Assembly (NCBI GenBank): GCA_965216755.1
Contig: CBDCGL010000011.1
Location: 2,720,001 to 2,784,000 of the forward strand
DNA: 64,000 nucleotides
Source: Alphaproteobacteria bacterium
Lineage (GTDB): Bacteria; Pseudomonadota; Alphaproteobacteria; UBA7887
Direction: 5' to 3'
Under the pieces are notes generated by a model. That model made no database searches, was not told the origin of the DNA, and worked only from the letters and a program-made list of their open reading frames with translations. A program made the position numbers and the translations under genes. How positions within the stretch are numbered: the stretch's first letter is position 1; each line of letters opens with the position of its first letter. Positions 5,153 to 59,924 of the stretch are shown in pieces.

Positions 5153-5906
5153 AGCACCAATCCACTTGCCAGGACTGTGCTCCCGCCGTGCCCCGGCAAC
5201 GGACCCGTTCGACTTGCCAACGCGGCCAGCCGAGACCATCCTGTCCGTCGCGCCCCGCGGCCGGTCGCGGCGCCACCCGCCAACGGGTCAACGCGACACT
5301 GCTGCCCACGCCGCGCCCACTGTCGCAATGACCGTGTAGCAACAGGCACGGCGTGCCAGAGGCCTGGGCCGCCAACTGCAAGCGGCGCCCGGCGGTGAGG
5401 TCAAGCGCACCGACCTCGCCCAACACCGCGCCCAAGCGGCCGGCACGCAGGCTTTCCTCCAGCACCCACAAGGCCTGCTCGGGGTGGCCGGCGCGCACCA
5501 TGATCACCCGCGCCGGGTCAAGCCCAAACGCGTGCAAGCCGGGTGCATAAAGATCCGCCCGCGTAAGACACCACAATGCCGGGCCATGCCCGGCGATCAG
5601 CCGCGCCATCAGCGCCGCCGCGAAGCCGCTGGCCGCCGCGACCGCCGCGGGTGTCGCCGTCGCACTTTCCACCTCGTGCACGCCGCCACGGGGCAAGCCA
5701 CCCCACGGCAACGTTTCATCCAACACCGCGAAACCCAGCGGCGTGGCGGCAATGGCAGCAACCTCGCTGCCCATTTCAAGGGCGTGGATACGCGCCCGCA
5801 AATGGGCAAGCAAAGCCGGATCGGATCGGCGTGTTATGGCCGAACGACGGATCGCCGAATGTGCCGAATGTAACGGCGACGTGTGTAAGATGGCATGACT
5901 CGGCAT
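5067..5906 (-). CDS. imuA: ImuA, RecA-like mutasome protein
   Basis: LDETLPWGGLPRGGVHE, LYAPGL..FGLDP and RRLQLAA motifs. First gene of the imuABC cassette. Confidence 0.92.
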   Translation of the reverse strand: MPSHAILHTSPLHSAHSAIRRSAITRRSDPALLAHLRARIHALEMGSEVAAIAATPLGFAVLDETLPWGGLPRGGVHEVESATATPAAVAAASGFAAALMARLIAGHGPALWCLTRADLYAPGLHAFGLDPARVIMVRAGHPEQALWVLEESLRAGRLGAVLGEVGALDLTAGRRLQLAAQASGTPCLLLHGHCDSGRGVGSSVALTRWRVAPRPAAGRDGQDGLGWPRWQVERVRCRGTAGAQSWQVDWCYETHCFALAAPLADRSNGAQAGACRIAG

Positions 5907-17800: not shown

Positions 17801-18034
17801 AATATGCCCGACTTCTGGCGCGACCGGTTCGTCACCACGATCGCGCTCGCCCAACTTGGGCGCCTCGACGAAGCGCGGCAAAGCCTTGACCGCATGCTCG
17901 AACTGCACCCGGCCTTCGCCGAAGATCCTTGGGGCGAGTGCCGCAAGTGGAATTGGTCGGACGAGCTGATCACACACATTCTCGACGGGTTCAGAAAGGC
18001 TGGGCTCGCCATCCCACCTGATCCGGCCGAGTGA
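14879..18034 (+). CDS. Class III adenylate/guanylate cyclase with one TM helix and two TolB_N-like/TPR modules
   Basis: ILAADVAGYSRL, AGDSVLAVF, RIGVNLGD, YGDGVNVAARLE. TM segment WVAGLAAAIVLAIVAGGLW. SVAVLPFQNL and SIAVLPFENL each followed by TPR-like helices. Confidence 0.92.
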   Translation: MAEATDPKQRLAAILAADVAGYSRLMQADERATIATLNEYRGLFRTEIETHGGRVVDMAGDSVLAVFDSAIGAVTAAVQIQGELAQRNEALPDDRRMAFRIGVNLGDIFEQTDGTVYGDGVNVAARLEAMASPGGINVSGSVFDSVRSKVGVSFDFLGEQDVKNIADPVRAYRVAKGDPQSPNEHARAPKRKWVAGLAAAIVLAIVAGGLWRSGVFNPPGADQSETPNTAINAQNEGDGATEHLPPTDKASVAVLPFQNLTTDPEHAFLADGLHENIIATLSQARSLFVPARFSTLQYKDANVDVKNVARTLGVAHVLEGSVQATDQRVRITMQLIDAESGGHVWAERYDRPLDDVFDLQDEITLEVVRALQVRLTEGDQALRWSGGTRSLDAWKRVERGLALIRRFTKADSIKARALLEEAVQIDPNYVLAWSYLSVANEQTYRYGWSDDPIFLERAEEYLAKALALNDELAAPYIPLAYLHRTRGRLKEGVAAAQKAVELDPNGSISRAALAEMLIVDGQIESALNSIDEAMRFSPVFPDWYMATKAHALLLAGAAVEAAELLEEYTRRVPSDPESIWQLPIAQARAGRLELAEHAIASLRQAEPTASIESFRQFASRVWPYRDPDILQGHIRVLRDLGLPEHPPHADADKPSIAVLPFENLSGDPEQDYFAKGISEELITALGRFPALRVAARGASFLLAGEAPVEVAQELSVGFVLEGSVRKSGNAIRIDARLASAEGNQIWAERFERDLTAANLFAIQDDITSRVSARIASGHGTMAEDILARRQMNRTDDLGAYECYLRSLRILDAPSPGIYAEGRDCLEAAVVADPKFVDGWYLLKYIYESEYLFGFNPRPQPLERALDAAQKVLALDPTHPKGLYGLATIYFMRQEISQFYDTANRALRVNPNDTETMYDLGWMIAYAGQWERGIALVDRAFELNPAIGSRIYIPKSIDKYRRSDFVGALAAAQRINMPDFWRDRFVTTIALAQLGRLDEARQSLDRMLELHPAFAEDPWGECRKWNWSDELITHILDGFRKAGLAIPPDPAE

Positions 18035-35678: not shown

Positions 35679-35776
35679 TCGAAGGAGAAACTTCGAACCG
35701 CCTCTTTGAAACACTACAAGACTGGGACACCTACCTCAAGGAGAACACTGTCGAGTTCAGGGAGCCTGCACCATGA
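35678..35776 (+). other. Detached 3' segment of the serine recombinase gene (joined in the excised circle)
   Basis: In frame with the shared GCG CAC codons, reads LEGETSNRLFETLQDWDTYLKENTVEFREPAP*. The TGA (35774-35776) overlaps the mobC ATG (35773). Confidence 0.75.
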
Positions 35777-36222
35777 CGCAGCACTCCCAGGATTGGAATC
35801 GCGGCAGCACCTCAAAGGCTTTCACGGACGCGGCGAGGCAAGCCCAATCACAGCCGTATGAAAAACCGGTTCCATTCTCTCTGCGTCTGACGCGCGAAGA
35901 ACGGGCGCAACTGCATGCGCAGGCTGGAGATCAGCCACTCGGTGCCTACATTCGCCACCAATTGCTAGGCGACAAAGCCCAAAAGCGCCGCCGCACACGC
36001 CGGCCCGGAGTCGACCACCAGAAGCTTGCATTGGTACTTGCCGAACTCGGACGTTCGCGGCTCGCCTCCAACCTGAACCAACTTGCCAAGGCAACAAATA
36101 TGGGCACGTTGGACGTATCCGCCGATCTCGAACAGGAGCTCCGTGAGGCTTGCCAGTCCATCGCGGCGATGCGTGAGAAACTAGTCTCGGCCCTGGGCGT
36201 GAAGGTGGAGTCTGGAAAATGA
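35773..36222 (+). CDS. mobC: MobC-like relaxosome accessory protein
   Basis: RHH-like FSLRLTREERAQL..LGAYIR and LAELG...SNLNQLAK motif. ATGA overlap with the relaxase. Confidence 0.85.
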   Translation: MTQHSQDWNRGSTSKAFTDAARQAQSQPYEKPVPFSLRLTREERAQLHAQAGDQPLGAYIRHQLLGDKAQKRRRTRRPGVDHQKLALVLAELGRSRLASNLNQLAKATNMGTLDVSADLEQELREACQSIAAMREKLVSALGVKVESGK

Positions 36223-37511
36223 TACTCGTAGGAAATCAGCGGGGCGGAGCGAAAAGCTTGGCCCTCCATCTGCTGAAAGACGAGAACGATCATGTGGAGG
36301 TGTTCGAACTTCGGGGCTTCGCCTCGGATGAATTGCTCCCTGCACTGAACGAAGCCTACGCCGTGAGCCGGGGCACGCGCTGCAAGCAATTCCTGTTCTC
36401 GCTCAGCTTAAACCCACCGCGTACCGAGAATGTCGAAACGGGCGTGTTTGAGAACGCTATTGACAGAATCGAGGAAAAGCTGGGTTTACAGGGTCAGCCC
36501 CGCGCCATCGTCTTTCATGAAAAGAACGGCCGCCGTCATGCGCATGCGGTGTGGAGCCGGATCGACACAGGTGAAATGAAGGCAGTTCCCCTGCCCTACA
36601 CGAAATTCAGACTGCGGGACATATCGCGTGAGCTTTACCTGGAGCATGGCTGGACCATGCCGCACGGTCTTATGAACTCCGAAGCGCGCGATCCTAAGAA
36701 CTTCACCTTGGCGGAATGGCAACAGGCCAAGAGGATCGGCAAAGACCCACGCGAAATTAAGACCGTCTTCGAGGATTGCTGGGCGGTGAGCGATACGCAG
36801 GCTGCGTTTGCCCATGCCCTAAAGGAGCGCGGCTACGTTCTCGCACGCGGCGACAAGCGCGGTTTCGTGGCGCTCGATTTCCGTGGTGAAGTCCACTCGG
36901 TCTCCAAGCGGGTCGGGATCAAGGCGAAGGACGTGCGCGCCAAGCTGTGCGATGAGGAATCTCTGCCTTCCGTCGATAAAGCCAGAAGCCAGATTGCCGA
37001 GGGCATGGCGGCGCGGCTTCAGGAATTAGAGGGTCAACACCGCAAGACAATTGATGCTCGCACAGCCGCGCTTGAACAACGTTGCAGGACGTTGACGCGC
37101 CAACATGTGGATAAACGACGGGCCATGTCCGAATTCCATGAAGCCCGCCAGCTACGAGAAAGGTGTTTACGCCAGGACCGGTTCCGAAGCGGTTTGCGCG
37201 GCCTCTATGACAGGGTGACAGGGCAGCATAAGAGGATTCGTGAGCGCAATGAGGATGAAGCCTGGCAGGCCCTTTTGCGCGACCGGCGGGAGAAAGATGC
37301 ACTGATATTCCGGCAGCTCGAAGAACGTCGGAACATTCAAGATCGACTTGAAAAACTCAGGTCGCTGAAGTCAGAACGGACAACCGAGCTCAAACGCGAC
37401 ATCGACGCGTACCAGGAGATGAAGGAAGGCGAGCGTGAGAAACTGGAACGTCATCGCAGTGACAAACCACGCATCCAGCGGCGACGGCCCGGCAGAGACC
37501 TGGGGAGATAA
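36219..37511 (+). CDS. Relaxase/mobilization nuclease (MOBP-like)
   Basis: MILVGNQRGG, FSLSLNPP, AIVFHEKNGRRHAHAVWSRID (3-His HUH motif), coiled-coil C-terminus. Confidence 0.9.
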   Translation: MILVGNQRGGAKSLALHLLKDENDHVEVFELRGFASDELLPALNEAYAVSRGTRCKQFLFSLSLNPPRTENVETGVFENAIDRIEEKLGLQGQPRAIVFHEKNGRRHAHAVWSRIDTGEMKAVPLPYTKFRLRDISRELYLEHGWTMPHGLMNSEARDPKNFTLAEWQQAKRIGKDPREIKTVFEDCWAVSDTQAAFAHALKERGYVLARGDKRGFVALDFRGEVHSVSKRVGIKAKDVRAKLCDEESLPSVDKARSQIAEGMAARLQELEGQHRKTIDARTAALEQRCRTLTRQHVDKRRAMSEFHEARQLRERCLRQDRFRSGLRGLYDRVTGQHKRIRERNEDEAWQALLRDRREKDALIFRQLEERRNIQDRLEKLRSLKSERTTELKRDIDAYQEMKEGEREKLERHRSDKPRIQRRRPGRDLGR

Positions 37512-37690
37512 AGTTCAGCCGGCCAACAAAATGAAAAATGGGGTGCGCCTGCACCCCTGCCTCGTGGCGAACAGGGGTGTGCAAGCGGAAGGAAAAATCG
37601 GCGGCGGGCGCACAAGCGTCAGCGCGGAGCCTCGGGAGACCGCCTATTTTTCCTGAAGCGCGCTGAGGGCGAAGCCCTAAGCCGCGTGAG

Positions 37691-37769
37691 GGATCGAAGC
37701 CGCATGGCCGAGACCGCGTATTGCGGGCTCGGTTTACGAGAGCCCGGTCCGGCTTCAGCCGGACGTGCC
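37691..37769 (+). repeat. Structured dispersed repeat, copy A
   Basis: TCGAAGCCGCATGGCCGA...GGGCTCGGTTTACGAGAGCCCG-GTCCGGCT-TC-AGCCGGAC-GTGCC. Confidence 0.85.
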
Positions 37770-38169
37770 GGGAAGCCAGAACCGAATCAGCCTATGATTT
37801 GAAATGTTAGAATTCACGGCCTTGATTACCCATTTATCGGTACCAATCTCCCAGGTCGCTTGGCCACAGGCAAAAACTGTGAACGCCGATTTGGGCGGCT
37901 TTACATGCGCCGGGAAATGTGTTTCTAGAGTGACGCGCTTTCTAGCGACGCTGGATCGGCTCGCTGACCGTGTTCTTCAACACCCCGCTAAGCGCCAGGA
38001 CGTAAGCCGGAAGTGCCGAAATATCCGTAAATGGTGTGTCGGGTCCGTTTTTTTCAATTCTGCATTGACAGTGCCGTCAGCTAGATGGTTACCTTCTCAT
38101 GAAGCTTCCTTTGCAGCTGCGTGAGGTTATTCTTTTGCCCCTTCCAAGTCCCGTTTTTGCGGTTGGAGC

Positions 38170-38675
38170 GTGACTCCGCTGCAAGCCGAGCGTCTGCTGA
38201 TCATTGTTCAAGAGGCCAAACAAAACGGATGGTATATGGGAACTTCAGCAGAATTAGCGAAACTTTTTGGAGGCGATGGCATTAGTGTCACGCCAAGGGC
38301 GGCAAACTATTTCATTACGCACTTGGCTGGGGCATACGGGTGTTGCAGCAAGCAAGGCAGGCGCTGGAGGGTCGATCACGAAAACTTGTGCACTGAAACC
38401 GGAAAGTGCCGCCTACCTGATGGAGTTGCAGCGACTGTGCCAGAGTGGTGCGAACAGGGCGTACCGGGTTTCAAGAGAAGAGTTCTGCCAGGTTCTTGAA
38501 ACGAGGTATGGAGCCGACAGGGAAACCATGGACGATTTCTTCGAGGTCGCGCTCGGAGGCGACTATGTGGAGGCGCTCGTTAACCCACGAGGCTACATCC
38601 GGCCTGGGCCACGGATGGATGCAGCAGCTTGAATACCTGGAGTTATTGTCAAGGAGTGTGGCATCGAATGAATAA
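38170..38675 (+). pseudogene. Probable frameshifted hypothetical gene
   Basis: Protein-like sequence appears to pass through three overlapping ORFs: 38170..38499, 38267..38632 and 38445..38675. Confidence 0.4.
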
Positions 38676-38735
38676 ATATGAAATAATCCGGAGTATTTCT
38701 TTATGTTAGTCCGTGTATTTAAAAGGTAATGTACT

Positions 38736-38972
38736 ATGAAAATCAGAAAAATGCATACTGAAGAAAATCCACCCGAAAGGAAAGGGTTGGTACGGACGTT
38801 TGAAGACCTACGTCGTGAGGCTGGTCCACTTGAGGAAAGGCTGAAGCGTTATGGTTTCGATTTGTACGGTGATCACGAAGGGTTCTATGATTCTCAGAAT
38901 GCGGAACTTAAGAGGAAATCCGACGAACACCTAAAGGCGCCGCTGCTCAGCATAGCTAAACAGGAACCATGA
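38736..38972 (+). CDS. Hypothetical protein, 78 aa
   Basis: AT-rich upstream region with AAGG RBS. ATGA overlap with the next gene. Confidence 0.55.
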   Translation: MKIRKMHTEENPPERKGLVRTFEDLRREAGPLEERLKRYGFDLYGDHEGFYDSQNAELKRKSDEHLKAPLLSIAKQEP

Positions 38973-39673
38973 ATGCGGACGATGAAGGGACAATTGATGT
39001 CAATACGGAGATCCGAGACGTATTAGACTATTATCAAGACACCTTTGTTCTCGCCGGCACGACGTACGCAGAAATATCCAAAAGGACTAACGCAAACGAA
39101 CCTCTTTCTCCTCTCGTACTCGGCGAAGTGCGGAGTGCTCTTACTCATCTGGCGCGAGCCAGCAAAGCGCGCCCAGAGAATTCACAAAAAGAATTGTTCC
39201 GTTCGCGTCGGCACATAGCGGTCGCCGCACGTGAAGCCATTAAAGCCAGCATCACCCTCATCAGAGATGATGTAGAAACAAATTTTCGTTCGAGCATCGA
39301 ATTCTTTGGGCGGGCCGACGAGCAACATGTAAGAGACGCGATGCTGATCGACGCCCGCGTCGCAAAAATGATTGAAGCCGAAGATGACCAAAGCCTAGAG
39401 CAAACCCAAGCGGATATCAGAGACTACAAAGAAATATTGTCATGCTATTTAGCTCTTCGCGAAAAGCAATTAGATGAGGAGTATATAGGACAATTTCTCA
39501 GTAGTGCCGAAATGAGAGCGGAAATCGAAAAGAGGAAAGAACGAGTACAAGAGGACGAGAGGAAGAAAATTGCCACGACGAAGAAAAAAACACGAAGAAC
39601 GGATATTATTGTTTTATTTGTCGTCACAATCGTAGGCGCATTACTCAGTTGGGCGCTAGGTCTTATCCCATAA
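38969..39673 (+). CDS. Hypothetical helical protein with C-terminal TM anchor
   Basis: 234-aa ORF with a charged coiled-coil, then IIVLFVVTIVGALLSWALGLIP. Confidence 0.75.
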   Translation: MNADDEGTIDVNTEIRDVLDYYQDTFVLAGTTYAEISKRTNANEPLSPLVLGEVRSALTHLARASKARPENSQKELFRSRRHIAVAAREAIKASITLIRDDVETNFRSSIEFFGRADEQHVRDAMLIDARVAKMIEAEDDQSLEQTQADIRDYKEILSCYLALREKQLDEEYIGQFLSSAEMRAEIEKRKERVQEDERKKIATTKKKTRRTDIIVLFVVTIVGALLSWALGLIP

Positions 39674-39712
39674 ATCAGCGGGCTGCCAAATAAGAATTTG
39701 GTTCACGAGTGT

Positions 39713-39792
39713 GGTCGAAGCCGAATGGCCGAAGCCTGACGCAGACGGGGTTCGGTTCACGAGGGCCTGGTCCGGCTTTAGTCGGACGTGCC
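39713..39792 (+). repeat. Structured dispersed repeat, copy B
   Basis: TCGAAGCCGAATGGCCGA...GGGTTCGGTTCACGAGGGCCTG-GTCCGGCT-TT-AGTCGGAC-GTGCC. Confidence 0.85.
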
Positions 39793-39837
39793 CGATGAAG
39801 ATTCGCACGTGATTGACACATCTAGTAGATTGATAGT

Positions 39838-41154
39838 ATGGCATGGGAACACAACAAAGAGCAGTGCCCGCTGGCCGCCGTCGATCGGCGGCTCGAAGAC
39901 GTGCATCGGTTTTGGCACCAAGCGGAGGAAGTCTACTTCGACCCTGACGCCTTCCGTGTTGCCATTCAGGCGGCGATCCAGACCGCGCGGACCGTGACGC
40001 TTGTTCTTCAAAAAAATAAGAATGTCCTCCCCGACTTCGACAAATGGTACGAGCCTTGGCAGGAAAAACTCGGTGCCAACGCGCTTATGAAATGGATGGT
40101 GGAGGCGCGCAATCGCATTGAAAAGCAAGGCGACCTTGACGCGCATAGCTTTGTGAGCGCCGAAATCGTCGCTTCGCACCTGGACGAAGGCCTGCACATC
40201 CAGGTTCCAGCAAGGTTATCCGACGCACCGCTGGCTCTCATAAGAAGCATTCCCGCGAACGCCCTCGGCGAACACATGAAAAAGGACGGCATCTTGAGAA
40301 TCCGCCGCCGCTGGATCGAGAACAGCTTGCCGGACTACGAGCTTCTGGATGCGGTCGCAGATGCCTACGGCCAACTCTCCCAAGTCGTACGCGCCGCGCA
40401 CCGTCAGATGGGCGTCGGCGGTCCGGAGACGACGAACGTGACGACGGGCCAGACTTACCCCGACGGTGATCGCGCTGGGCGCTTGCCGTGCATGATCGGG
40501 CACGAAGACGCACGCACGCTCGACGTTTGGCTGGCGACAGGCGAGCCATTGGAATTCTCAGAAGTACCGCACAAAGTCGATCTATCTAAAGGTCCCGAGG
40601 TGATGAAGCGGTACGGCGTCGAGCCGCAAGAGATGTTTGCAGACAGTGGACTGCCGGAGGACCACGCCCGCACGCTATTCGCCACCGCCCGCAAGATGTT
40701 CGAGAAAGACGGCTACCACATCACGCTGGCGATTCTATTACCCGATGGTAAGCCTGCCGCGTTCCGCGAGCTGCGGCCCGAAGAACACGGTCACAAATAC
40801 ATGATGATGCGCAACCTTGCGCATGAAGCCCAACGCATTGGTGCGGACTCTGTGATCCTCATCAGCGAATCATGGAGCGCGCCCGCTAACCCAGCCAAAC
40901 CCTACATGCGGCCCGTGGATTCACCTGATCGCCGCGAGCTTCTGACAGCGACAGTCGTGTCGAAAGCCGGAGAGCCACTACATCTGTCAGCGGAAATATT
41001 TCGAGAGAAGAACAAGGTTTCGCTAGGCGAGACACACGAGAATAGCGGCGGCTCGCACTACGCCTTCGCGCCATTCTACGAAGTGTGGGGCAAGGAAATT
41101 CCTGCGATCTGGGTTTCCGGGGAACGCACCGCCGATTCTGCTGAAGAGAAATAG
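39838..41154 (+). CDS. Hypothetical protein, 438 aa
   Basis: Long ORF with natural composition lying between repeat copies B and C. No family recognised with confidence. Confidence 0.8.
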   Translation: MAWEHNKEQCPLAAVDRRLEDVHRFWHQAEEVYFDPDAFRVAIQAAIQTARTVTLVLQKNKNVLPDFDKWYEPWQEKLGANALMKWMVEARNRIEKQGDLDAHSFVSAEIVASHLDEGLHIQVPARLSDAPLALIRSIPANALGEHMKKDGILRIRRRWIENSLPDYELLDAVADAYGQLSQVVRAAHRQMGVGGPETTNVTTGQTYPDGDRAGRLPCMIGHEDARTLDVWLATGEPLEFSEVPHKVDLSKGPEVMKRYGVEPQEMFADSGLPEDHARTLFATARKMFEKDGYHITLAILLPDGKPAAFRELRPEEHGHKYMMMRNLAHEAQRIGADSVILISESWSAPANPAKPYMRPVDSPDRRELLTATVVSKAGEPLHLSAEIFREKNKVSLGETHENSGGSHYAFAPFYEVWGKEIPAIWVSGERTADSAEEK

Positions 41155-41213
41155 AACGTCCTTGGCCGCCCTTTAGCACCCGGCACAAAACAGAGTTGCA
41201 TGCGCAACCCTGT

Positions 41214-41269
41214 GGGGTTCGGTTCACGAGAGCCCGACCCTCCGTAGCCGTAACGAAGGAGGGCGCGCC
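41214..41269 (+). repeat. Structured dispersed repeat, copy C (partial)
   Basis: GGGGTTCGGTTCACGAGAGCCCG-A-CCCTCC...GGAGGG-CGCGCC. Confidence 0.75.
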
Positions 41270-41342
41270 TCATCACAAAGCGCCATTCAGCAGGAGCGAC
41301 TGAAACACAATTGAGACAATCAGAAAGCCAATCGAATGCTCT

Positions 41343-43013
41343 TTAACGTGCCTTCCAGATTATGAGGCTAGCGAGTGAAAGTATTCGGATCATGTCGATA
41401 ACTTTGTTGTGGTCAAAGCGCAAAAGGCCAAGGTGGGCTCCTTCATTGCGAATGACCCAGAAGGAGAGCAAGGCCCGAACGACCGGATTGTAGGCGCCGC
41501 CCGCCTTGATGCGCGCGATCTGCGCGAGCCTACTCGGCAAAGTGCTCTTGCCCGTATCTACGAGCTTTCCGTAGCGCGTAAATAGAGGGCAGAGATCAAC
41601 CGGCCCATTCACATTAAAAATGCGCCGAAGCTTTCGGGATAAAGTATCACCGCGCGGCTCAAGGCCTCGGTCGATAATCGCTTCATTGGCAATCATCTCA
41701 CATAATGTGGCCATGTTAACGAGTTCGGATGTCGAAGCCGCTCGGTGAATTGGATCGTCCCGCCGCTCCAGATCAACGAGCCGCCGGAAATGCCAGTAAT
41801 ATTGGTAAAGTCCTCTTTCTTCCAACCAATCGCAAAAATGACCTAATTCTGCTTCACTGACCGGAAATGGAGCCGGCAAAGGGCCAAGCGCTTCATCCGC
41901 CCATCGCTTTAGCGAGCGGATCGTCAAGGAGCGCTGCTCTTCCGTCCAGTCGGGATAAACCACTTCAAGTGTAGGTCTGAAATGACCCATGCGCCGTCCT
42001 ACGCGAGCGACTACATCGCGGGGATTAATCGCCGTCGCGCTGCGCAAGAACATGATCGAAGAATGGATGTTGCGCTTGTACTCCTCTGCTACAGCCGCAG
42101 GGCCGACCTTCTGCGCGTTATGCCACCACTCACACTGCTTGCCGATAAAGCTGATCACATCGTCTTCGGATAGTCCGCTTGCGCGAAACGTCTGATCCGC
42201 GATCTCACGTTCGCGTCGCAAATATCGCTGCCATGGCCTGTAGGGTATGCGGCCATGTTGATCGCGGTCGCCTATGAAAGTTTGAAGCGAGTTATGCGCA
42301 TAGGCATGAAAATACCCTACCGCCTTAAAGTGCCGCTCGTACTCTCTAAGCTCACGAAGTTCGCGGTAGCCCTCAATATTGACGCTCTGTTGTGAGCGTG
42401 TCCTTAGCTCGTCAAGAGTTAGCACATTGCCACGCAGGACTTCTGTTCCTAGATGCTCGTCATCAAGCGGATAATAGATATGCACGCCCGAGCGCAGGAT
42501 CGCAGCGAGCCAGAATATTTGCCAGTAGTGATAGAAGCTTGGCGTATCGTGATCGGGGTTCGAAAGGATGGGACCGCCATCAGTTTGATAGAGACGGACG
42601 CGGCGGTCTTCCCATGATGTGAAGCTATCGCGCGAAAACTCCGTCTGGATAAACGGACGATGCGCATCATCGAGCACGTCGAGCGCGTGAATGCTCTCTC
42701 CATAGCGGTGCGCATCGGGCCAGCGCGCGATGGCCTGCATGAGAGAGGCGGCGTCATTAAGGCGCGACCCGTCCGGCTCGATGGGATCGACGATATCGAC
42801 ATGCGGGTAGGTCTCACGGGTGCAACGCCGCAAAATATCCGCAGGCAGATTGATCCGGCACACGGGCGTCAGCAGACCTTCTCTTTCAAGAAACTCCATC
42901 AGCTCCCTTGCAGGAGGATGCGTGCTTAGATCGAGATCAACGGCGTAATCGCACAGTTCTTTTTGACGTATGTAGCGCCGCCCGAATCTGTTTTTTGTTC
43001 TTATTGGCGTCAT
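41343..43013 (-). CDS. Hypothetical protein with C-terminal HEPN-like RNxxxH motif
   Basis: Start taken as ATG 43013 (MTPIRTK), 19 bp after the herA stop. Helical C-terminus with IRNEGAH. Confidence 0.7.
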   Translation of the reverse strand: MTPIRTKNRFGRRYIRQKELCDYAVDLDLSTHPPARELMEFLEREGLLTPVCRINLPADILRRCTRETYPHVDIVDPIEPDGSRLNDAASLMQAIARWPDAHRYGESIHALDVLDDAHRPFIQTEFSRDSFTSWEDRRVRLYQTDGGPILSNPDHDTPSFYHYWQIFWLAAILRSGVHIYYPLDDEHLGTEVLRGNVLTLDELRTRSQQSVNIEGYRELRELREYERHFKAVGYFHAYAHNSLQTFIGDRDQHGRIPYRPWQRYLRREREIADQTFRASGLSEDDVISFIGKQCEWWHNAQKVGPAAVAEEYKRNIHSSIMFLRSATAINPRDVVARVGRRMGHFRPTLEVVYPDWTEEQRSLTIRSLKRWADEALGPLPAPFPVSEAELGHFCDWLEERGLYQYYWHFRRLVDLERRDDPIHRAASTSELVNMATLCEMIANEAIIDRGLEPRGDTLSRKLRRIFNVNGPVDLCPLFTRYGKLVDTGKSTLPSRLAQIARIKAGGAYNPVVRALLSFWVIRNEGAHLGLLRFDHNKVIDMIRILSLASLIIWKAR

Positions 43014-43032
43014 CGCATTGCACTCGCATAGC

Positions 43033-45171
43033 TTAGTCCGGCGGCAAGGCTTCGCCATTTGCCGGTGGGTCTTCGCCTTCGGCCTGCTCCCATGATGATG
43101 CGATAGGAGGCCAGTCTGGAGGCACACCCTCCCGGCGCAGCCAGGTACCCCAGAATTTCGGATCATCCGAACGCGGACGTTGTGGCCTCTGCAGATCACG
43201 AATGCGAATAAGCACAGGTGTTGGCACGGCCCACCCGAGAAGAATGGCCTGTTGCGAGGGAAGAGTTGGAAGTTCGCCGAGAAGCCCGCCCAGAGCATCG
43301 GGAACCAGGCGGCGGACTAGATTCTGGTCTACATCATTGACGATACGGTGAAGCAGGAACGAATTGCACTGCGCGAGCACGGTTGGTGAAAGCTCTAATG
43401 GGCGCTGCGAGGCAAGAACCAAGCCCAACCCGAATTTGCGCCCCTCTCGTGCGATACGCTCAAATGTCTGACGGCACAACTCAGAGGCTTGCGCGCTGGC
43501 ACCGACATCGGCGTCCCGGCGCACAAAACTGTGCGCTTCTTCGAGCACAACGACCGTGGGCAAAGAAGCATCATTTTCTTTGATGTGACGCTGCAACGCC
43601 TCGAAGATCAGGCGGGATATGACAGCAATAGCAATATGAACGACATCCGAAGGAACAAGCGAGAGATCGAGGATAACAAGCGGTTCCTGATTGCCTTCTA
43701 CCGGCCCTAGAAGACTATTGAGCCATGAGCCAAGCGAATCGGCACCCTCGGTGTCGATCACGGGGCGGAGCCCTGCATCGCCAAGCATAACCTGTATTCG
43801 GTTTATGAGCGGCTCAACATTGTTCAGCGCCTGCCCACCCGTTGCCATGGCAACGTCGTGGATGCGGTCGGGAAGCGCGGCGACATCAAAGCGAACGGGC
43901 GCATCCTCACTGATTTCGCCGTGCGTTGCTGCGATGGAAAAGGCGTCGGTAATCGTGCGGAGCTGTGCTAGTACGATTTGCACATCGGCTGGCTGAAAAT
44001 CGTTGTAGCCAGAGGAGTTTTGTGATGTCCAGTGGCGGCGCGCGCGCACTTGTTCAATCGGATCACGAATGGCGATAATGGCGTCTTTCAGATCAGCCGC
44101 GTCCGCGCCGTACTCTTCCAAGGTTGCCTCGTCGGTCTCGCTCAGCCCGAGAAGTCCTTCGAGCAATGATCCAAAATCACGATTCTGGGGAAACCCGGCG
44201 ACGCTTTGGGGCAATTCGGCATAAAGTTGTTCTACTTGACGCACATAGCCGTTGTAGCGGCGAGTGGCTTGCACACTTGCCGTCATTGCTGATGAGCCGG
44301 CGTTACGCAATTGCCGCAGCGCTCTTAGGAGTAAGGGGCGTTGCACTCCGGGTTGTGCGGAAGTGAAGGCAGCCCATTCCTGTCCGTTCCAGAGCCAGCC
44401 GGGCACAGTGAGTGGACGTATATCACCCTGACCGCCAACGGAAAAGCGCCGCACAGGCAATGTCCCATCGTTAAACGCCTGCGCATATTCGCCGTTGGGA
44501 TCAAGGATTATGAAGCGGGCGTTGGCAGGCTCGCCATTTTGCCCGTCCGGCTGGGCCGCCTTAGCGCTTTCCAGAGACCAGCGCACGATGCCTGCGACCG
44601 AGCACGACTTGCCGCTTCCGGTATTGCCCAGAACGGCAAGATGCCTACCAAAGAGTTTATCGGGATGGACCCACACGCGGGCGTTGCCTGCAAAAGGCGC
44701 CGTTCCGATTTGAATGAGTCTATCATCGGTCTTGGCTTCGACAATCGAGCGCAATTGGATAGCGCTCGGAAGGAGAACAGGATCGCCAACTGAGGGTAAA
44801 ACCGGAACACCGCGTTCAAGAGAGTAAAGCGGCTGGCCGTCTTCATCCTCGCCTTCGCGGAAGAGCGTCCCGAAGGGGATGGCAATCACGGTGCGGGCCG
44901 GAAAGGGAAGATCGACAAGCGCTTCATCCTTTTTACCGTTACCAGGCCTTGCGCGGACGATGGAGATTTCCTTGATAGCCGCAACGACAGCTCCGGTCTC
45001 ATTGGGAACCAGAACGTAGGCGTTTACTCGCGGAAAACCTGTCGGCGTGCCAGTATTAAGCGCTGTAGCCTGCGGCGTTTCGTTGAAAAGTGCGATACGT
45101 AGCTCGTCCGCTGTGACTGTTTCGACCCTGCCAACAGAGAGCGTTCCGATACGCTCGACAATCGTAGTCAT
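43033..45171 (-). CDS. HerA/FtsK-family ATPase (anti-phage HerA type)
   Basis: HAS-barrel-like N-terminus, RHLAVLGNTGSGKS, ILDPNGEY, VLEEAH, RIAREGRKFG, SQRP, QCNSFLLHR. Confidence 0.93.
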   Translation of the reverse strand: MTTIVERIGTLSVGRVETVTADELRIALFNETPQATALNTGTPTGFPRVNAYVLVPNETGAVVAAIKEISIVRARPGNGKKDEALVDLPFPARTVIAIPFGTLFREGEDEDGQPLYSLERGVPVLPSVGDPVLLPSAIQLRSIVEAKTDDRLIQIGTAPFAGNARVWVHPDKLFGRHLAVLGNTGSGKSCSVAGIVRWSLESAKAAQPDGQNGEPANARFIILDPNGEYAQAFNDGTLPVRRFSVGGQGDIRPLTVPGWLWNGQEWAAFTSAQPGVQRPLLLRALRQLRNAGSSAMTASVQATRRYNGYVRQVEQLYAELPQSVAGFPQNRDFGSLLEGLLGLSETDEATLEEYGADAADLKDAIIAIRDPIEQVRARRHWTSQNSSGYNDFQPADVQIVLAQLRTITDAFSIAATHGEISEDAPVRFDVAALPDRIHDVAMATGGQALNNVEPLINRIQVMLGDAGLRPVIDTEGADSLGSWLNSLLGPVEGNQEPLVILDLSLVPSDVVHIAIAVISRLIFEALQRHIKENDASLPTVVVLEEAHSFVRRDADVGASAQASELCRQTFERIAREGRKFGLGLVLASQRPLELSPTVLAQCNSFLLHRIVNDVDQNLVRRLVPDALGGLLGELPTLPSQQAILLGWAVPTPVLIRIRDLQRPQRPRSDDPKFWGTWLRREGVPPDWPPIASSWEQAEGEDPPANGEALPPD

Positions 45172-46448
45172 GCCGCCCCGCCTTCGCAGTCAGGCTCTCC
45201 CTGGCCCGTCTTTCCCCGCCGTTCAACCAGTTCACTCATTCGAATGGTTAGCGGATCAATGGCAGGCTTGGGCAGATAGTGTGCGACAAGCTGAGCAATA
45301 TCGCCGAAGTGTTTGCCAAGAAGGAGCGTGAGTTGCTGCGGCCTTCCAGCGCGCTCCACAAATGCAGAAACTCTTTCATGCGGCTTTTCACCCCAACCGA
45401 GAATGACGAGGTGCGTAGACGGGATCGTCAGCATGTCCCCGATAACTCTGTTGATGTGGTCGTCGCCAAAACCGAAGCCATAGCTTACAAGAACGTTGTT
45501 CGGCTGGCAGATTGATGATGAAAAATCGCGGAAGAGATCGGCATAGGGATAGGCAGCCGTCTCTACGTCCTTGACCGCATTGGGATAGATCATCACCGAG
45601 TTGCGCGGGCTATCAGGCACCGCAGGATGCGTTGCGTCTGCACCAAAGGGCAGGCCCGTGCGGTAAAGGCGCGGTTGTTCGTAGCGCCAGTCGAGCGAAC
45701 CGTGAAGCTTTGTAAAATGCATCACGCCTTCAAGATGGCGGGGCTCACCGCGAATACCCGGCGGCGTGTAGTGCATATCGATGTGCAGACGGGATGATCT
45801 GAATTCCGGGTCAAGTGCACCAATAAATCGGTCGATGATGCGAAGCCCGGCATGATCGCAGCCATGTTCAATCAAGCGGTCATAGTTGGTGGTAAATATG
45901 TGTAACCTTTCTCGCGATGCTGCGCGGCTGGCAAAACTCATCAGGAAGGAAACTAGAATCTCACTTGGCGAAGGCCCGCCAGCGGCGGGCACCGTGTTCA
46001 AGCCGTCGGCGATGCCTTTCTCAGTCGCAAGCACGTCCTTGATGAATCCGCCAAGCACATTGTCGATTGCCGCTTCCCAGGCAGGAGCGTCCTCATGTTC
46101 GAGAATTTGCAGACCGGCGAGAAGCGCGAGCGCGGCAGAAATTTGGTCTTCAATATTGGCGCTGCCACGCCCCATGCCTTCGGCCATCTTCTTCGCGTGC
46201 GCGTTAACCTTCTCCACGCCTTCGCAATCAAATTCGGCCTCGGCCATGGTGACGGGCGCGGCACCGGCTTGAACAGCAATGCCGGTGGTAAAGCCATTGC
46301 CGAGAAGAAGGGACAGGTGTTCGGCTTGAAAGACAGCTGACAGCCATGGCTCGATACGTCTGCGCCATGCGCCCGTATCACTAGCCGGGTCTTCGGGAAC
46401 GTGCGTCTCACCACCGATATGAACGATATGATCATGATCCCAATTCAT
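45168..46448 (-). CDS. SIR2-like (SIR2_2) protein
   Basis: [41 protein letters not shown] overlaps with both neighbours. Confidence 0.9.
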
Positions 46449-47182
46449 GACCTTGCCGCCTCCGCTGCCACATGGCCTGCGAGCTCGCTGACAAAGGTCC
46501 GAAGGCCGGTCATTTCGCTAAGGTCTGAGTATTCGCCGGTACCGGCGCCGTTGCGCGGCGATATGATGACCGACGCCGCCGTGTAGAGTTGCTCCTGCAC
46601 CAACTTACGACACAAGATGTTGTAACGGTCGGCATAGGACGCAGTCTCAAATTCAGCAAAAACCGGAAAATGCGGTGAGATATCCTTGACCGGCGCGCGT
46701 GATTTCGGGGCATCCTCGAGCAACATGAGCCAGCCAACAAAGGGCCGCGGCTGTTCGCCGAATGCGCCTTCGCGATAGGCGGTCCACAGGTCGTGGGCAT
46801 TGCCGATGGCCTCTTCGGTCCGGTTGTTGAAATTGTTGCCGAATGACGGACCGACTTGGCTCTTGAACTCCAGCACCGCGACCAAATGGCCCCGATTCAT
46901 TACGAGCAGGTCCCACTGCTTCGTTGGCCGAAAATAACCCGGAAGCGTCACGACCCGGCGCTTTCTGTGGATGTCTGCGAGACCGAGACCGTTGGCGCGC
47001 ACGATCTCCACGACCAGCGCGACGAACCCATCCATATTCTTGCCCGCCGTGACACCAGCGCGCTCGCCCTGATCTGCGTTGCCTGACTCGATTTGTTTCT
47101 GACGGGCCTGCTCACGATTGCCCCAGAACGCCTGAACAGCCTCGCGCGCCTTTTGTTCGTAATTTGCCAGATCAATCGCCAT
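46445..47182 (-). CDS. Type II restriction endonuclease, PaeR7I/XhoI family (predicted CTCGAG)
   Basis: [52 protein letters not shown], closely resembling R.PaeR7I as I recall it. Confidence 0.9.
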
Positions 47183-47193
47183 GCCCGTCTTTC

Positions 47194-48921
47194 TTATGCG
47201 TTTCCGTTTCCTCCGAGTGCGGCCCTCTCATCCTTGGACAAGCGATAGAGCTTGAATGCCGCCTTGTTGCAGGCCTCCGTATCACCGCGTTGTGCCGCCT
47301 TGATTAGCGCGCCCTTGATATCGGCAGGCACGTCCTGCCAGCGCGGCAGGCGAATTCGCCGCAGGTATTGCGCCTGAAAGCGGAAATAGCCACCCCGCAT
47401 CTGCGTTGAGTAGATCGAAACGAACAATCGTGCAATCCCTGATTGCAGCACAGACTGCAAAGCCTTCAAGTCCCATTTATCGGACGTGATGAAATAAAGA
47501 TTGTGGTGCGGGTAAAGCTTGCCGTCCTCATAGACGATATGGGCTTCACCCTTGATGTCGGGGATGAGCAGCTTCGGCTTGGTGGCGAGTACCGGGTAAA
47601 TCCGGTCAATGGTACGATACCAGTTTGCCGGTGCTTTTTTTGCAATATGCCGTTTGGCGATCTTGTCCTTGCGCGCTTCCAGATAGGCGCGCAGCTTGGG
47701 GTAGTTGCCGAGATCAACAAGCCCGACTTCATCGGCGAACGGATTGACGATGCCAAGCCCACGCCATTTGACCTCGCCGCTCAAGATATCGCGCGTCATG
47801 ACCAGCGGCAGCTTGCGGTCCGGCTCCACGTCAAGTTCGTCGAAGGGGCCGATAAAAGCCTTGTCATTGCCGGTTGCAACACCGATCCCGACCTTGCACC
47901 CGGCTTCTTCGATAAGCGGAAACTCGCTTTCCAGCCTGCGCACAAGGGCAAGCTGATCCGGGGATTCGAGTATCCAGGGTTCCGTTCCCGCCGCGACCCC
48001 CGCTAGCTCTTTGACAACGGAATCCGGACCCGGCACGTGTTTGGAAAGCAGCTGTTTGCCTAATGATCGCAGCGCTTTGTGGCTAATCCCCGGGCGGCGC
48101 GCGATGCGGGTCTTTCCCGGCTTTTCGTTGGCGATGATGGTAATGGCCGGATAAGCGATCACATCCGCATGGAAAGCAGGCGTATTCACCATGTCCACAT
48201 AGACCTTCAAGTGAAAACGCTCGGCAACAAGCTGCCGAAGCTGCCTGCCATAACGGTTCTTCATCCACCTGTCGGCGCAGATGAAACCGAGCGCGCTTTT
48301 TGTGCGAAGCAGATTCAGTGAGCGCTCGATGAAGGGGATATAGAGGTCGGCCCTGTCGAAGATCGTTTTGTACCGTGCACGGTACTCTGCCATCAGAGCG
48401 TCCGGAATAAGTTCCTGCCGAACGTAAGGTGGGTTGCCAACTACGTAGTCGAATGCGTCGGGTATGGGTGTGAGAAGAAAATCCCCACATACCAGCCAGG
48501 TATTTGTGAGACGCTCCGCATCACGATACTTTATCCCAGCTTCTATGAGCTGCGTGACAACGCGTTTACGCGTTGCTGAAAACGTGCTCTTGTGAAGCTC
48601 AACCGCTTTGATGCTGTCTTTGAGGCTCTCGAACGCATTGCCCTTTCCGCGGTGTCGCCGCCATGCTTCGAGCAAGCGCTCGACGATGATCAGAAGAAAA
48701 TCCCCCTCGCCAAATGAGGGCTCTAGGAGGCGGCGCTCGAATAGAGGCTTGTTGGGCGTGTAGCCCAAGAGGTCGAGAATGAACTCTACAACTTCGCGGC
48801 GCGTGTAGATTGCGCCTCGTTCTTCAATACCGGCAACAGCAAGATCTTTTAATGCATCCTCAACCGGACACATACCTGGAATCGACATCTGGCGGAGCTG
48901 AGGGTGTGCTGGTTCCGGCAT
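47194..48921 (-). CDS. N6-adenine DNA methyltransferase, gamma class (M.PaeR7I/TaqI-like)
   Basis: [11 protein letters not shown] (motif I), VVGNPPYVR (motif IV), ADLY..FIE, TaqI_C-like KLLIPDIK. Confidence 0.93.
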
Positions 48922-49142
48922 CAATAAGTCTCTCCCGCTTTGGCCTGTTCCAATTCGCCGAGAGTCACCTCGATGGTCCCGCCATTCCTGTGACGCTGCA
49001 AAAACTCGCGCATGGATCGTCGAATGAGCCAGGAAGCCGTGACTTCGCTGTTCCGGGCCAGTTTGTCGAACGCGGCGTAGTCATCCGGATCGACCGTCAC
49101 CGTAATTCGCTTCATCGGCTTAAGTATTTTACGCTTCGGCAT
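48921..49142 (-). CDS. Ribbon-helix-helix (CopG-like) regulator
   Basis: [28 protein letters not shown]. Its TGA overlaps the methyltransferase ATG. Confidence 0.78.
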
Positions 49143-49566
49143 AGTTTGCATATCTCTGATGCATAGTTTCATAGCGCATAATACCATATCTGCGACGATT
49201 TAAAAGAAGGCATACCAAATCTGGGGGTGCAAATCGCTGTAAGCCGCGCAGCTCGCCGCATTCAAGAAAGGTTCCAGGTTATGCGCTAACGGCGATCCGT
49301 TCGTCGATGGGGTCCAGGGGAGAGCTGACATCTCCCCGGTCTCGATGAAATCGTCATGGGGTTTTCAGGGGAGCAGGAACGCGCCCTTGAATGGCGATGA
49401 AACAGCCACTCGTTTCTGCATGGTCCGGTGCAGGTGGAGAGGCATGTCTCCAGGTCCTGCGAGTGATTGACCGGCGATACGGTCTGCTGGCGCATGAAGG
49501 CTCGATGCCAGGCATGCGCCATGGGCCGGGGGGATGCAACGGGGGCGCGCTAGCGGGCCCCCTTGC

Positions 49567-49599
49567 CGAGATGGCGTTGTAGTACAACGCACATCTTGC
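49567..49599 (+). other. Candidate oriT
   Basis: Inverted repeat GCGTTGT-AGT-ACAACGC (49574-49590) immediately followed by ACATCTTG/C, resembling the MOBP nick consensus YATCCTG/Y. Confidence 0.4.
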
Positions 49600-49661
49600 G
49601 CGCGCGCTAGTTCTGTTGCGCTGGTCTGTTGCGCGCGCTAGTCCTGTTGCGCCGGTCTGTT
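49600..49661 (+). repeat. 31-bp tandem direct repeat (2 copies, 2 mismatches)
   Basis: GCGCGCGCTAGTTCTGTTGCGCTGGTCTGTT / GCGCGCGCTAGTCCTGTTGCGCCGGTCTGTT. Confidence 0.9.
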
Positions 49662-49739
49662 GTTGGTTTCGGTGCAGCGCGGGGTCACGCGGTAAATTCG
49701 GCTGAATTCATACGGCAATGCAGAATAGGGTCATCTTAG

Positions 49740-57859: not shown

Positions 57860-58199
57860 GTGAATCAGACAGACAAAAAGAGAGAAAGGAGAGCACACAG
57901 GCAGACAGGAAATGCCGCCCCCGCGGACTCGCTTGACCTTGATCCCCACGAATATCGGGAGCACCTGGAAGGTTTGCACCTAACTGAAGCCGAGGAAAAT
58001 GAGCTTCTGCTGGCGCTATGGTCCATTATGAAAGCCTTTGTCGACTTGGGTTTCGGGGTAGATTCTATCCACCATTTTTTCCCGGCGCTTGGGCCAAATT
58101 CTACGCAAGCTTCGCCGGAAGCGTTAGAATCAAACGATCGGAAATCTGCTCGTCAGTCAGAGGAAGGCAGTTTTGATCCGGCGAGAAAGATGGTGGGCC

Positions 58200-58213
<14 letters not shown>
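57860..58213 (+). CDS. Small hypothetical protein overlapping the recombinase start
   Basis: [27 protein letters not shown] helical core. Overlaps the recombinase 5' end. Confidence 0.65.

Positions 58214-59924
<1,711 letters not shown>

Follow-up and report, generated by a model that had tools for sequence, protein, structure and literature searches.

A widespread folded DNA or RNA element of conjugative plasmids and islands, found as one intact, one decayed and one half copy in an alphaproteobacterial mobilizable island

The DNA analysed here, a stretch of 64,000 nucleotides that we call the window, comes from an alphaproteobacterium of the lineage UBA7887 (assembly GCA_965216755.1, contig CBDCGL010000011.1, positions 2,720,001 to 2,784,000 of the forward strand). 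It contains an island of low G+C content that extends from about 35.45 to 59.71 kb (~24 kb) and adjoins a gene for tRNA-Arg(ccg). With a relaxase, a coupling protein and a serine recombinase aboard, this is a mobilizable island (an integrative and mobilizable element, IME). Behind its relaxase gene lie three direct repeats, A, B and C, with genes between them (table 1). We conclude that all three are copies, one intact, one decayed and one reduced to a half, of a folded DNA or RNA element that is widespread on conjugative plasmids and islands. The element family itself is the larger result: it is widespread, strongly structured and tied to the establishment regions of conjugative elements.

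Table 1. Features of the island, in window coordinates. P1 to P5 are the helices of the element; R1 is the covariance model built from the family alignment; G101 and G149 are genomes carrying related islands. ORF, open reading frame; oriT, origin of transfer.
Feature	Position	Strand	Remarks
NikA/MobC-like accessory gene	35773–36222	+	Pfam
MobA/VirD2-type relaxase	36219–37511	+	Pfam; weak NCBIfam match to MobP-type relaxase, below cut-off
Mini-hairpin GGGCGAAGCCC	37667–37677	+	just 5' of A; same motif precedes the IncN and G101 copies
Copy A, intact	37684–37768	+	R1 79 bits, E 2e-16
P1 of A	37684–88 with 37764–68	+	GCGTG with CGTGC
P2 of A	37690–95 with 37740–45	+	GGGATC with GAGCCC
P3, P4 and junction of A		+	P3 CC-GCAT-GG; P4 CCGAG...CTCGG, tip variable; junction TTTACGA
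P5 of A	37748–37763	+	hairpin
Cargo module 1 (A–B)	37804–39673	+	ORFs of 106, 109/121, 78 and 234 aa; G+C 0.48–0.50
Orphan GGTTCACGAG	39700–39709	+	identical to junction of B; abuts 5' end of B
Copy B, degraded	39704–39791	+	R1 52 bits, E 2e-10
Cargo module 2 (B–C)	39838–41154	+	single 438-aa ORF; G+C ~0.58
Copy C, 3' half only	41214–41268	+	full model R1 just 11 bits; 22-nt core matched exactly
Further cargo, C to oriT-like block	41343–48924	-	651-aa ORF of unknown type, HerA, SIR2, XhoI-type endonuclease, methylase
oriT-like block	49458–49600	+	non-coding; 82% identity to G101; conserved in related islands
Inverted repeat of oriT-like block	49574–81 and 49583–90	+	arms GCGTTGTA and TACAACGC, then ACATCTTG, proposed nick, CG
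Proposed nick-region stretch of the island family			ACATCTTGCG
Large serine recombinase	58173–59924	+	right end of island; conserved in G149
tRNA-Arg(ccg)	59713–59789	-	ARAGORN; serine recombinase ORF runs across the tRNA gene

How alike are the three repeats? The 22-nt core GGGYTCGGTTYACGAGRGCCYG lies at 37725, 39748 and 41215, each time on the + strand; these three matches compare with none in 100 dinucleotide-preserving shuffles. A hairpin follows each core. Its arms differ, with compensatory change, from copy to copy (GTCCGGCT/AGCCGGAC in A, GTCCGGCT/AGTCGGAC in B and CCCTCC/GGAGGG in C), and CGTGC or CGCGC stands directly behind it. A repeat search grouped A, B and C as one family, with identities to A over 45 nt of 87% (B) and 62% (C), and placed a second block, TCGAAGCCGNATGGCCGA, common to A and B, in a family of its own. 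A first-pass annotation of this DNA had described such an arrangement: three direct repeats with a shared core and then a hairpin kept in structure while changed in sequence, a block shared by A and B, a further GGTTCACGAG at 39700, a contrast in G+C content between the enclosed modules and a common orientation of their ORFs. All of this is borne out.

The three copies have fared differently. In B, both P1 and P2 are weakened (GTGGTC/GGGCCT), P4 is preserved through a double change from G–C to A–U, and P5 is like that of A (87%). Copy C consists of the 3' strand of P4, the junction, the 3' strand of P2, P5 (ACCCTCC...GGAGGG) and CGCGC, the 3' strand of P1. It lacks a 5' half, and the low score with the full model arises because C holds the 3' half alone. 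Copies B and C both retain P5 and the 3' strand of P1. The P5 of copy C is like that of one other locus (L091) and unlike that of A or B, and belongs to another lineage of the element. Because of this resemblance, and because C starts within the 3' strand of P4, we conclude that C was not copied from A or B. The orphan GGTTCACGAG just ahead of B looks, from its sequence, like a scar of rearrangement. The mini-hairpin just ahead of A accounts for a weak blastn match of query positions 1–58 to IncN plasmids; in G101 an insertion of ~170 nt separates this GCGAAGC mini-hairpin from the element.

The source genome of 5.0 Mb holds only one further copy, on contig C10 (18.3 kb): the four pattern matches and the three model matches all lie on the island or on that contig. 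The repeat is therefore not one dispersed through the genome. Contig C10 (locus L157) is small and resembles a mobilizable plasmid, with RepA, ParA, a MobA/MobL relaxase, a coupling protein and HipA-HTH; its copy of the element lies between DUF2958 and an HTH gene, in the same sense as both. Another contig of this genome, C8, gives the same relaxase match twice (1014–2225 and 16748–17959), probably because the assembly reads round a circle of ~15.7 kb.

How far does the element extend beyond this genome? A pattern of its 5' half, GGGATNGAMGCCNNNNGGNNGAGA, matched at least 114 stretches in genome contigs. The pattern fixes the 5' half of whatever is sampled, and the 3' half was also present in 86 of the 117 matches seen in the loci. 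At least 93 distinct full copies were extracted from the sampled loci and the window; alignment A2 holds 94 sequences, and a covariance model of the family (R1) was used to score the copies in the window. A single match in genome G015, with two mismatches, lacks the rest of the element and was treated as chance. The element is mostly ~85–125 nt long and occurs at a minimum of about 90 loci besides the window. Its hosts are mainly Alphaproteobacteria, where it is present in 12 of 151 sampled genomes of the class (the source genome included); they also include Halomonas, a Methylococcales metagenome-assembled genome (MAG), Betaproteobacteria, enterobacteria with IncN plasmids and, in the Bacteroidales, Muribaculaceae, Prevotellaceae and Bacteroides MAGs. 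Against plasmids, blastn with copy A found matches in Bradyrhizobium, Tritonibacter, Azospirillum, Xanthobacter, Massilia and Ralstonia, and weakly in IncN. Five plasmid records were inspected. In three the match lies among genes for ssb, toprim, ArdC-like proteins, methylases or RadC; in the IncN record it is near ssb and a SprT-like gene, and in the Xanthobacter plasmid between parA and a toxin–antitoxin pair. With a family spread in this way over the conjugative elements of several phyla, the repeats are not a cassette system private to this island.

The members of the family share one fold. A closing helix of 5 bp, P1, encloses P2 (GGGAUN/N'AGCCC, with an internal A.G), which in turn encloses P3, a short hairpin CC-GNAN-GG, and P4, a long hairpin CCGAG-A-C...G-G-CUCGG of variable tip. 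A variable hairpin, P5, sits before the 3' strand of P1 in most copies. Unpaired nucleotides are conserved as well (GGGAU.GAAG, GAGAC and UUCACGA). In A2, pairing is possible in 94.7% of cells, compared with 83.8% in shuffles, and the covariation score is 0.236, compared with 0.072; in neither case did any of 500 shuffles reach the observed value, and controls in which the structure was slid along the alignment gave at most 0.035. One pair, 13–82, takes all four Watson–Crick forms (CG 39, GC 29, UA 10, AU 6). P1 closes fully in 65 of 93 copies, whereas swapping the 5-mers among copies gave a mean of 25.7 and a maximum of 35, and its two strands co-vary (GCGCA/TGCGC, GCGCG/CGCGC, GCGTC/GACGC, GCGTT/AACGC, GCGAT/ATCGC). 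Covariation thus supports the helices P1, P2 and P4. The Bacteroidales copies (L014, L023, L027, L028, L059, L077, L099) share the core, have A–U at the covarying P2 pair and continue into a longer conserved 3' extension (...CTCGGATGGCCGG.AGGCACCGCCCG), which suggests a possible extra helix in that lineage.

Does the element belong to a catalogued family? The first-pass annotation had allowed for a match to a known non-coding RNA. Rfam 15 gave no relevant match at gathering thresholds in the window and nine loci, and none at E up to 10 on A–C or the best-scoring copy. A weak match of Proteo-phage-1 to copy A, the one hit that fell on a repeat, was rejected at 18.8 bits against a gathering score of 42. 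A remnant of a tRNA or tmRNA was likewise rejected: ARAGORN reports only the tRNA-Arg at 59713–59789, whose 3' end is unlike the repeat.

The genomic setting of the family follows a pattern, as judged from crude longest ORFs taken as nearest neighbours within 800 nt. On the 5' side, ArdC accounts for 26 of 78 neighbours. All 26 ardC genes lie on the opposite strand, starting 50–430 nt away (median 228). Methylases, ArdA, RadC, BrxA and DUF2958 are also found on this side. On the 3' side the neighbours are diverse. Among the 54 of 88 that were scanned are GmrSD (three times), AbiEii, HipA and Eco57I-type methylases (twice each), AIPR, a reverse transcriptase, a PLD nuclease, SMC-like ATPases, a UvrD-type helicase and others. 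In the sampled loci, the element stands at the border where a conserved backbone gene gives way to a variable region. Some plasmids carry co-oriented clusters of two to five copies: five in Ralstonia, five in Massilia, three in IncN and two in Xanthobacter. In the IncN plasmid pN-Cit, the three copies (R1 57–58 bits) stand at the gene-distal ends of repeat units of ~560–700 bp, within what the literature names the regulon controlled by conserved upstream repeats (CUPs; PMC5371602, PMC3490853). In the MOBF plasmids, IncN, Massilia and Ralstonia, the cluster lies across oriT from the genes for the coupling protein and the relaxase, and the strand of the element is opposite to that coding for the relaxase. 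By the textbook geometry of F and R388, we take the element's strand in these plasmids to be the transferred (T) strand. In leading regions, genes are reported to be so arranged that the T strand is their template (Samuel et al. 2024, PMC11541004).

Which strand of the island would be transferred? The oriT-like block (table 1) is ~12 kb from the relaxase gene and is conserved also in G149 and in a Devosia locus (L029). It was matched in three of the 92 other loci: the match in L029 is real and lies downstream of the element on the same strand, and those in L017 and L008 (one mismatch) are spurious. Across three islands the arms of its inverted repeat change in a compensatory way. They are followed on the + strand by ACAKCTTGCG, or by ATCCTGCG in G149, and homology between islands stops at this motif, where alignment A3 ends. 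The nick consensus of the MOBP class is ATCCTG/C, the slash marking the nick. The block looks, by its sequence, like an oriT of the MOBP type, with a putative nick on the + strand after 49598. Were the + strand nicked there, the T strand would be that of the element. The minimal relative in G149 has the order nikA, relaxase, GST, MarR, ArdC (on the - strand), element, oriT-like block, serine recombinase, tRNA, with 240 nt between ArdC and the element and 60 nt from there to the oriT-like block. Given this order, the 3' end of the T strand would carry the element, and a single primer there could be enough for copying the entire strand. Two iteron-like direct repeats (GCGCGCGCTAGTYCTGTTGCGCYGGTCTGTTG) occupy 49599–49665 of the window, right past the putative nick; G101 lacks them at this place.

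What, then, might the element do? We infer that it is a single-strand initiation signal on the T strand and, in addition, a homology anchor beside a cargo hotspot, a reading to which we give an even chance of being right. The element would act as single-stranded DNA (ssDNA) on the T strand, as a start signal for RNA synthesis that primes the complementary strand. Wherever it is followed by a gene templated by the T strand, for example ardC, the same start could serve early transcription. Being a conserved sequence next to a site at which cargo accumulates, the element would double as a homology anchor, and recombination between copies on different elements could swap or add cargo modules. For the window, this would make A the copy that is resident and at work, and B and C the decaying or truncated leftovers of successive acquisitions; a cassette-like appearance would arise in this way without integron machinery. 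GNA and GNRA loops number 28 on the element strand (19 GNA triloops and nine GNRA loops), and the complement has two, plus two UNCG loops. Neither flank shows a promoter conserved at a constant distance: upstream, no position exceeds 0.31 bit, and downstream of P1 the first two bases reach 0.48 and 0.40 bit and the remainder at most 0.21. Since the special loops are mostly on the element strand and neither a conserved promoter nor a terminator accompanies it, an initiation signal on the T strand is favoured.

Several observations weigh against this reading. Many of the loci are related integrative and conjugative elements (ICEs), so the family counts are not independent. The nick strand was assigned by resemblance to the MOBP consensus and by the point where homology ends, and it puts the relaxase gene on the proposed T strand, which is unusual. 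Orientation was judged from crude longest ORFs: of the 78 nearest ones on the 5' side, 57 lie on the opposite strand and 21 on the same strand; of the 88 on the 3' side, 53 and 35 do so. Wobble in the core helices, G.U 13 and A.C 2, is a biased count, since the search pattern fixed the 5' strands, and P1 shows the opposite trend, being rescued by G.U in five copies and by A.C in 12. The fold is thermodynamically ordinary (with DNA parameters, z is -2.3 for A and ~0 for other copies). The element has no -35 and -10 boxes of the kind found in the ssDNA promoters called Frpo, and the two promoter-like sites in 37400–41500 (38658–38687 on the + strand, 41416–41389 on the - strand) are both off the repeats. 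Finally, A and B are flanked on both sides by + strand genes, and no suitably oriented gene follows them. An RNA started at the element with the + strand as template would be antisense to the relaxase gene or the cargo, and therefore only the priming role fits the window.

Could the element act as RNA, or as a binding site for a protein, instead? As RNA, it would be either a small structured transcript of its own strand, antisense or divergent to ardC, or, read from the complement, a cis-element in the operon mRNA between ardC and the gene ahead of it. In either form it would control genes of establishment, and the window would then hold genes for it, or remnants of such genes, in its repeated copies. 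We consider this unlikely, although it deserves more weight than the other alternatives. Covariation looks the same for RNA and for ssDNA, nine of the 28 special loops are of the GNRA type, and the P1 rescues just given lean towards the complement. C–G-closed GNA triloops are typical of very stable DNA mini-hairpins, and here they outnumber GNRA loops by 19 to nine. The lack of a conserved promoter upstream and of a terminator downstream speaks against a transcript, and so does orientation: the element follows the inferred T strand even where this runs against the local genes (window, G101 and contig C10). There is a precedent for the RNA view in the STAXI motif, which occurs near ssb and antirestriction genes and for which an RNA role was favoured (Weinberg et al. 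2010, PMC2864571). A site bound by a protein encoded on the mobile element, single- or double-stranded, would involve no start of RNA. The ssDNA-binding N-domain of ArdC, SSB, a primase or an accessory protein of the relaxosome might use it to protect, handle or terminate the T strand. The tight linkage to ardC, the strong conservation of unpaired nucleotides and the 60 nt that separate the element from the oriT-like block in G149 are in keeping with such a site. However, the element is found without ardC in the window, in G101 and on the IncN plasmid, several copies lie kilobases from oriT, and the family extends over phyla in which its partner genes are very different, which speaks for a host factor; we think a binding site of this kind quite improbable.

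How did the cargo come to lie between the copies? Homologues of the island's relaxase were found in 27 of 401 sampled genomes of the class (the source included), and the loci were taken with flanks of 1.5 kb. Only the locus of G101 carries the element within these flanks; in G149 and G115 it is ~4 kb further away. Around the element, homology to the window is limited to the core, 37682–37745 in G101, 37689–37746 in G149 and 37689–37751 in G115, that is, 58–64 nt, with identities of 84–89% compared with 65–69% for the flanking backbone genes. Homology thus ends at the element core, and the DNA on the cargo side is unrelated between the window and these three genomes. The window and G101 have their cargo behind the element (in G101 a type I restriction–modification system and others); G149 and G115 have it in front. 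As the first-pass annotation had it, the repeats mark the limits of unrelated cargo, and its idea of a homology anchor agrees with the confined homology. That idea is supported by the breakpoints in the three relatives and by the IncN precedent described below. Breakpoints differ between half copy C, degraded copy B and the orphan of 10 nt, which points to recombination and decay rather than to a fixed crossover site. Module exchange at the element may therefore proceed by homologous or illegitimate recombination, as reported for the IncN repeats. Joints in metagenomes, 37714>41219 and 37717>41215 (three runs, with 7–12 other letters between), were rejected as products of excision; we read them as element copies of other organisms, matching A in its 5' part and C in its 3' part, with sides of 22–29 nt.

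The first-pass annotation had also proposed attC-like recombination sites of a cassette system that may be undescribed. In such a system a site-specific recombinase, perhaps the island's serine recombinase, would cut cassettes out and insert them at the repeats. The three direct repeats do stand right behind the stop codons of successive + strand genes, C and the orphan at 39700 resemble scars of junctions, and the fold is kept while the sequence of P5 changes. But the element is a conserved multi-helix core of ~60 nt and not a bulged hairpin of the attC type. No pair RYYYAAC...GTTRRRY, 40–150 nt apart, occurs on either strand of 37500–41400, and the window has no tyrosine recombinase: as had been noted of an integron integrase, none of the genome's 11 PF00589 matches falls within it, the nearest being 18 kb before and 30 kb after. 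The scars of B and C begin at different positions of the element, with no common crossover point. Module A–B holds four or five ORFs, and only B–C is a single-ORF unit. Within 1.5 kb of the homologues of the 438-aa gene in two other genomes there is no element, which therefore does not accompany this gene in the manner of an attC; and in many ICEs the same element is present singly, beside ardC. We regard such a cassette system as very unlikely. Still fainter is the chance that the repeats are ordinary intergenic furniture, either intrinsic terminators or a selfish repeat like repetitive extragenic palindromes (REP) or miniature inverted-repeat transposable elements (MITE). Their position just past stop codons and their G+C-rich hairpins would suit it. 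Yet the four terminator-like sites in 37400–41500 overlap none of A, B and C, where a T run is lacking, which also sets aside the known terminator that the first-pass annotation had allowed for. Moreover, the 5.0 Mb genome has just four copies, all on mobile elements, and covariation in several helices together with conservation across phyla does not fit. This explanation is largely refuted.

All ORFs between A, B and C are on the + strand, and none has a family match in Pfam, PADLOC or NCBIfam. Beyond C, the 651-aa ORF overlaps, as listed, that of HerA (it ends at 43298, and HerA runs from 43033) and precedes the SIR2–HerA pair; the methylase that accompanies the XhoI-type endonuclease in this defence cargo is of the Eco57I/TaqI type. 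A SprT-like gene, the coupling protein and then the large serine recombinase follow in that order. Protein homology of the recombinase to G149 reaches 59753, which is inside the tRNA, and therefore the integrase gene overlaps, at its end, with the tRNA gene in its 3' part. Between the relaxase stop codon and copy A, a terminator-like hairpin with a T run (37540–37557, - strand) would stop leftward RNA from the region of the element; G101 has a similar hairpin at the corresponding place (L155, ~5588–5615). The 130 nt past the relaxase stop (37511–37643) are non-coding yet ~67% conserved with G101.

Why should such an element matter? What is known of the priming and expression of incoming plasmid and ICE DNA at the single-stranded stage comes only from a few hairpin promoters of enterobacteria. 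An element that is unlike them and covaries strongly offers a testable handle on establishment across Alpha-, Beta- and Gammaproteobacteria, IncN resistance plasmids and Bacteroidales. Since backbone genes or ardC lie to one side and variable defence or toxin–antitoxin cargo to the other, the covariance model could locate cargo hotspots, and possibly the polarity of the T strand, in unannotated mobile elements. The element would also account for the rearrangement of a region of IncN plasmids treated below. Full-text literature searches gave no paper whose title or abstract describes the motif, a scope outside which lie the original paper on the IncN repeats and supplementary motif lists, such as the one with the Rhizobiales-1 motif (PMC2864571; no Rfam entry). 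The kind of element is known, as structured signals and repeats of leading regions; the family and its fold appear to be undescribed.

With which known systems may the element be compared? An attC site carries an inverse core, RYYYAAC, and a core, GTTRRRY, at the ends of an imperfect palindrome. Like attC, the element folds as a single strand, stands at the 3' ends of cargo genes in one orientation and, in P5, conserves structure more than sequence. It differs in that intI, attI and the R and L core boxes are lacking here, in its conserved core of 60 nt and in modules of several genes. The single-strand origins (sso) of rolling-circle plasmids are folded ssDNA signals, specific for strand and orientation, just upstream of the nick site. 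The G149 element, 60 nt before the oriT-like block, resembles them in position; the type of replicon is another. The radC motif is likewise structured and near mobile-element genes. STAXI, too, is a conserved structured motif near ssb, antirestriction, integrase and methylase genes, and a role in ssDNA has been discussed for it, but it is described as tandem pseudoknots with UUCG loops (PMC2864571). The Rfam 15 families of STAXI and radC do not match here at E up to 10.

A likeness in function would be to Frpo and single-strand initiation (ssi) elements of the leading regions of F, ColIb-P9 and pESBL. These are repeated, folded elements of the T strand. The genes downstream of them, for anti-restriction, ssb and methylases, have this strand as template, and the elements are proposed to be primers and promoters both (PMC11541004, PMC12672017). 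The present element would have such a position, on the T strand and upstream of genes templated by it, by geometry in the three MOBF plasmids and at the ArdC loci; its strand in the window fits the inferred nick, but no gene of suitable orientation comes after A or B. By its description, Frpo is set apart as a long single hairpin that rebuilds -35 and -10 boxes, whereas our element is a G+C-rich junction of several helices without such boxes. We therefore put forward tentatively, as a claim with rather less than an even chance, that it represents an uncatalogued, cross-phylum class of folded ssDNA signal on the T strand, unlike the Frpo hairpin promoters, which would prime the complementary strand, start early anti-restriction (ardC) expression and mark a cargo hotspot; recombination between its copies would give a module exchange that is integron-like but free of an integrase.

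The conserved upstream repeats (CUPs) of the IncN leading region (pKM101/R46) are direct repeats in one orientation at the 5' ends of successive operons (Delver & Belogurov 1997, as cited in PMC5371602 and PMC3490853), and deletions or inversions in IncN plasmids have been attributed to recombination between them (PMC3490853, PMC5371602). CUPs are described as specific to IncN and as including a promoter and the ArdK operator. The window shares only the structured core of ~60–130 nt and has neither the other ~450–570 bp of the IncN unit nor its promoter part. In the accounts of CUPs given in PMC5371602 and PMC3490853, the fold of the core and its spread beyond IncN go unmentioned. The repeat units in the CUP region of pN-Cit contain three copies of the element described here.

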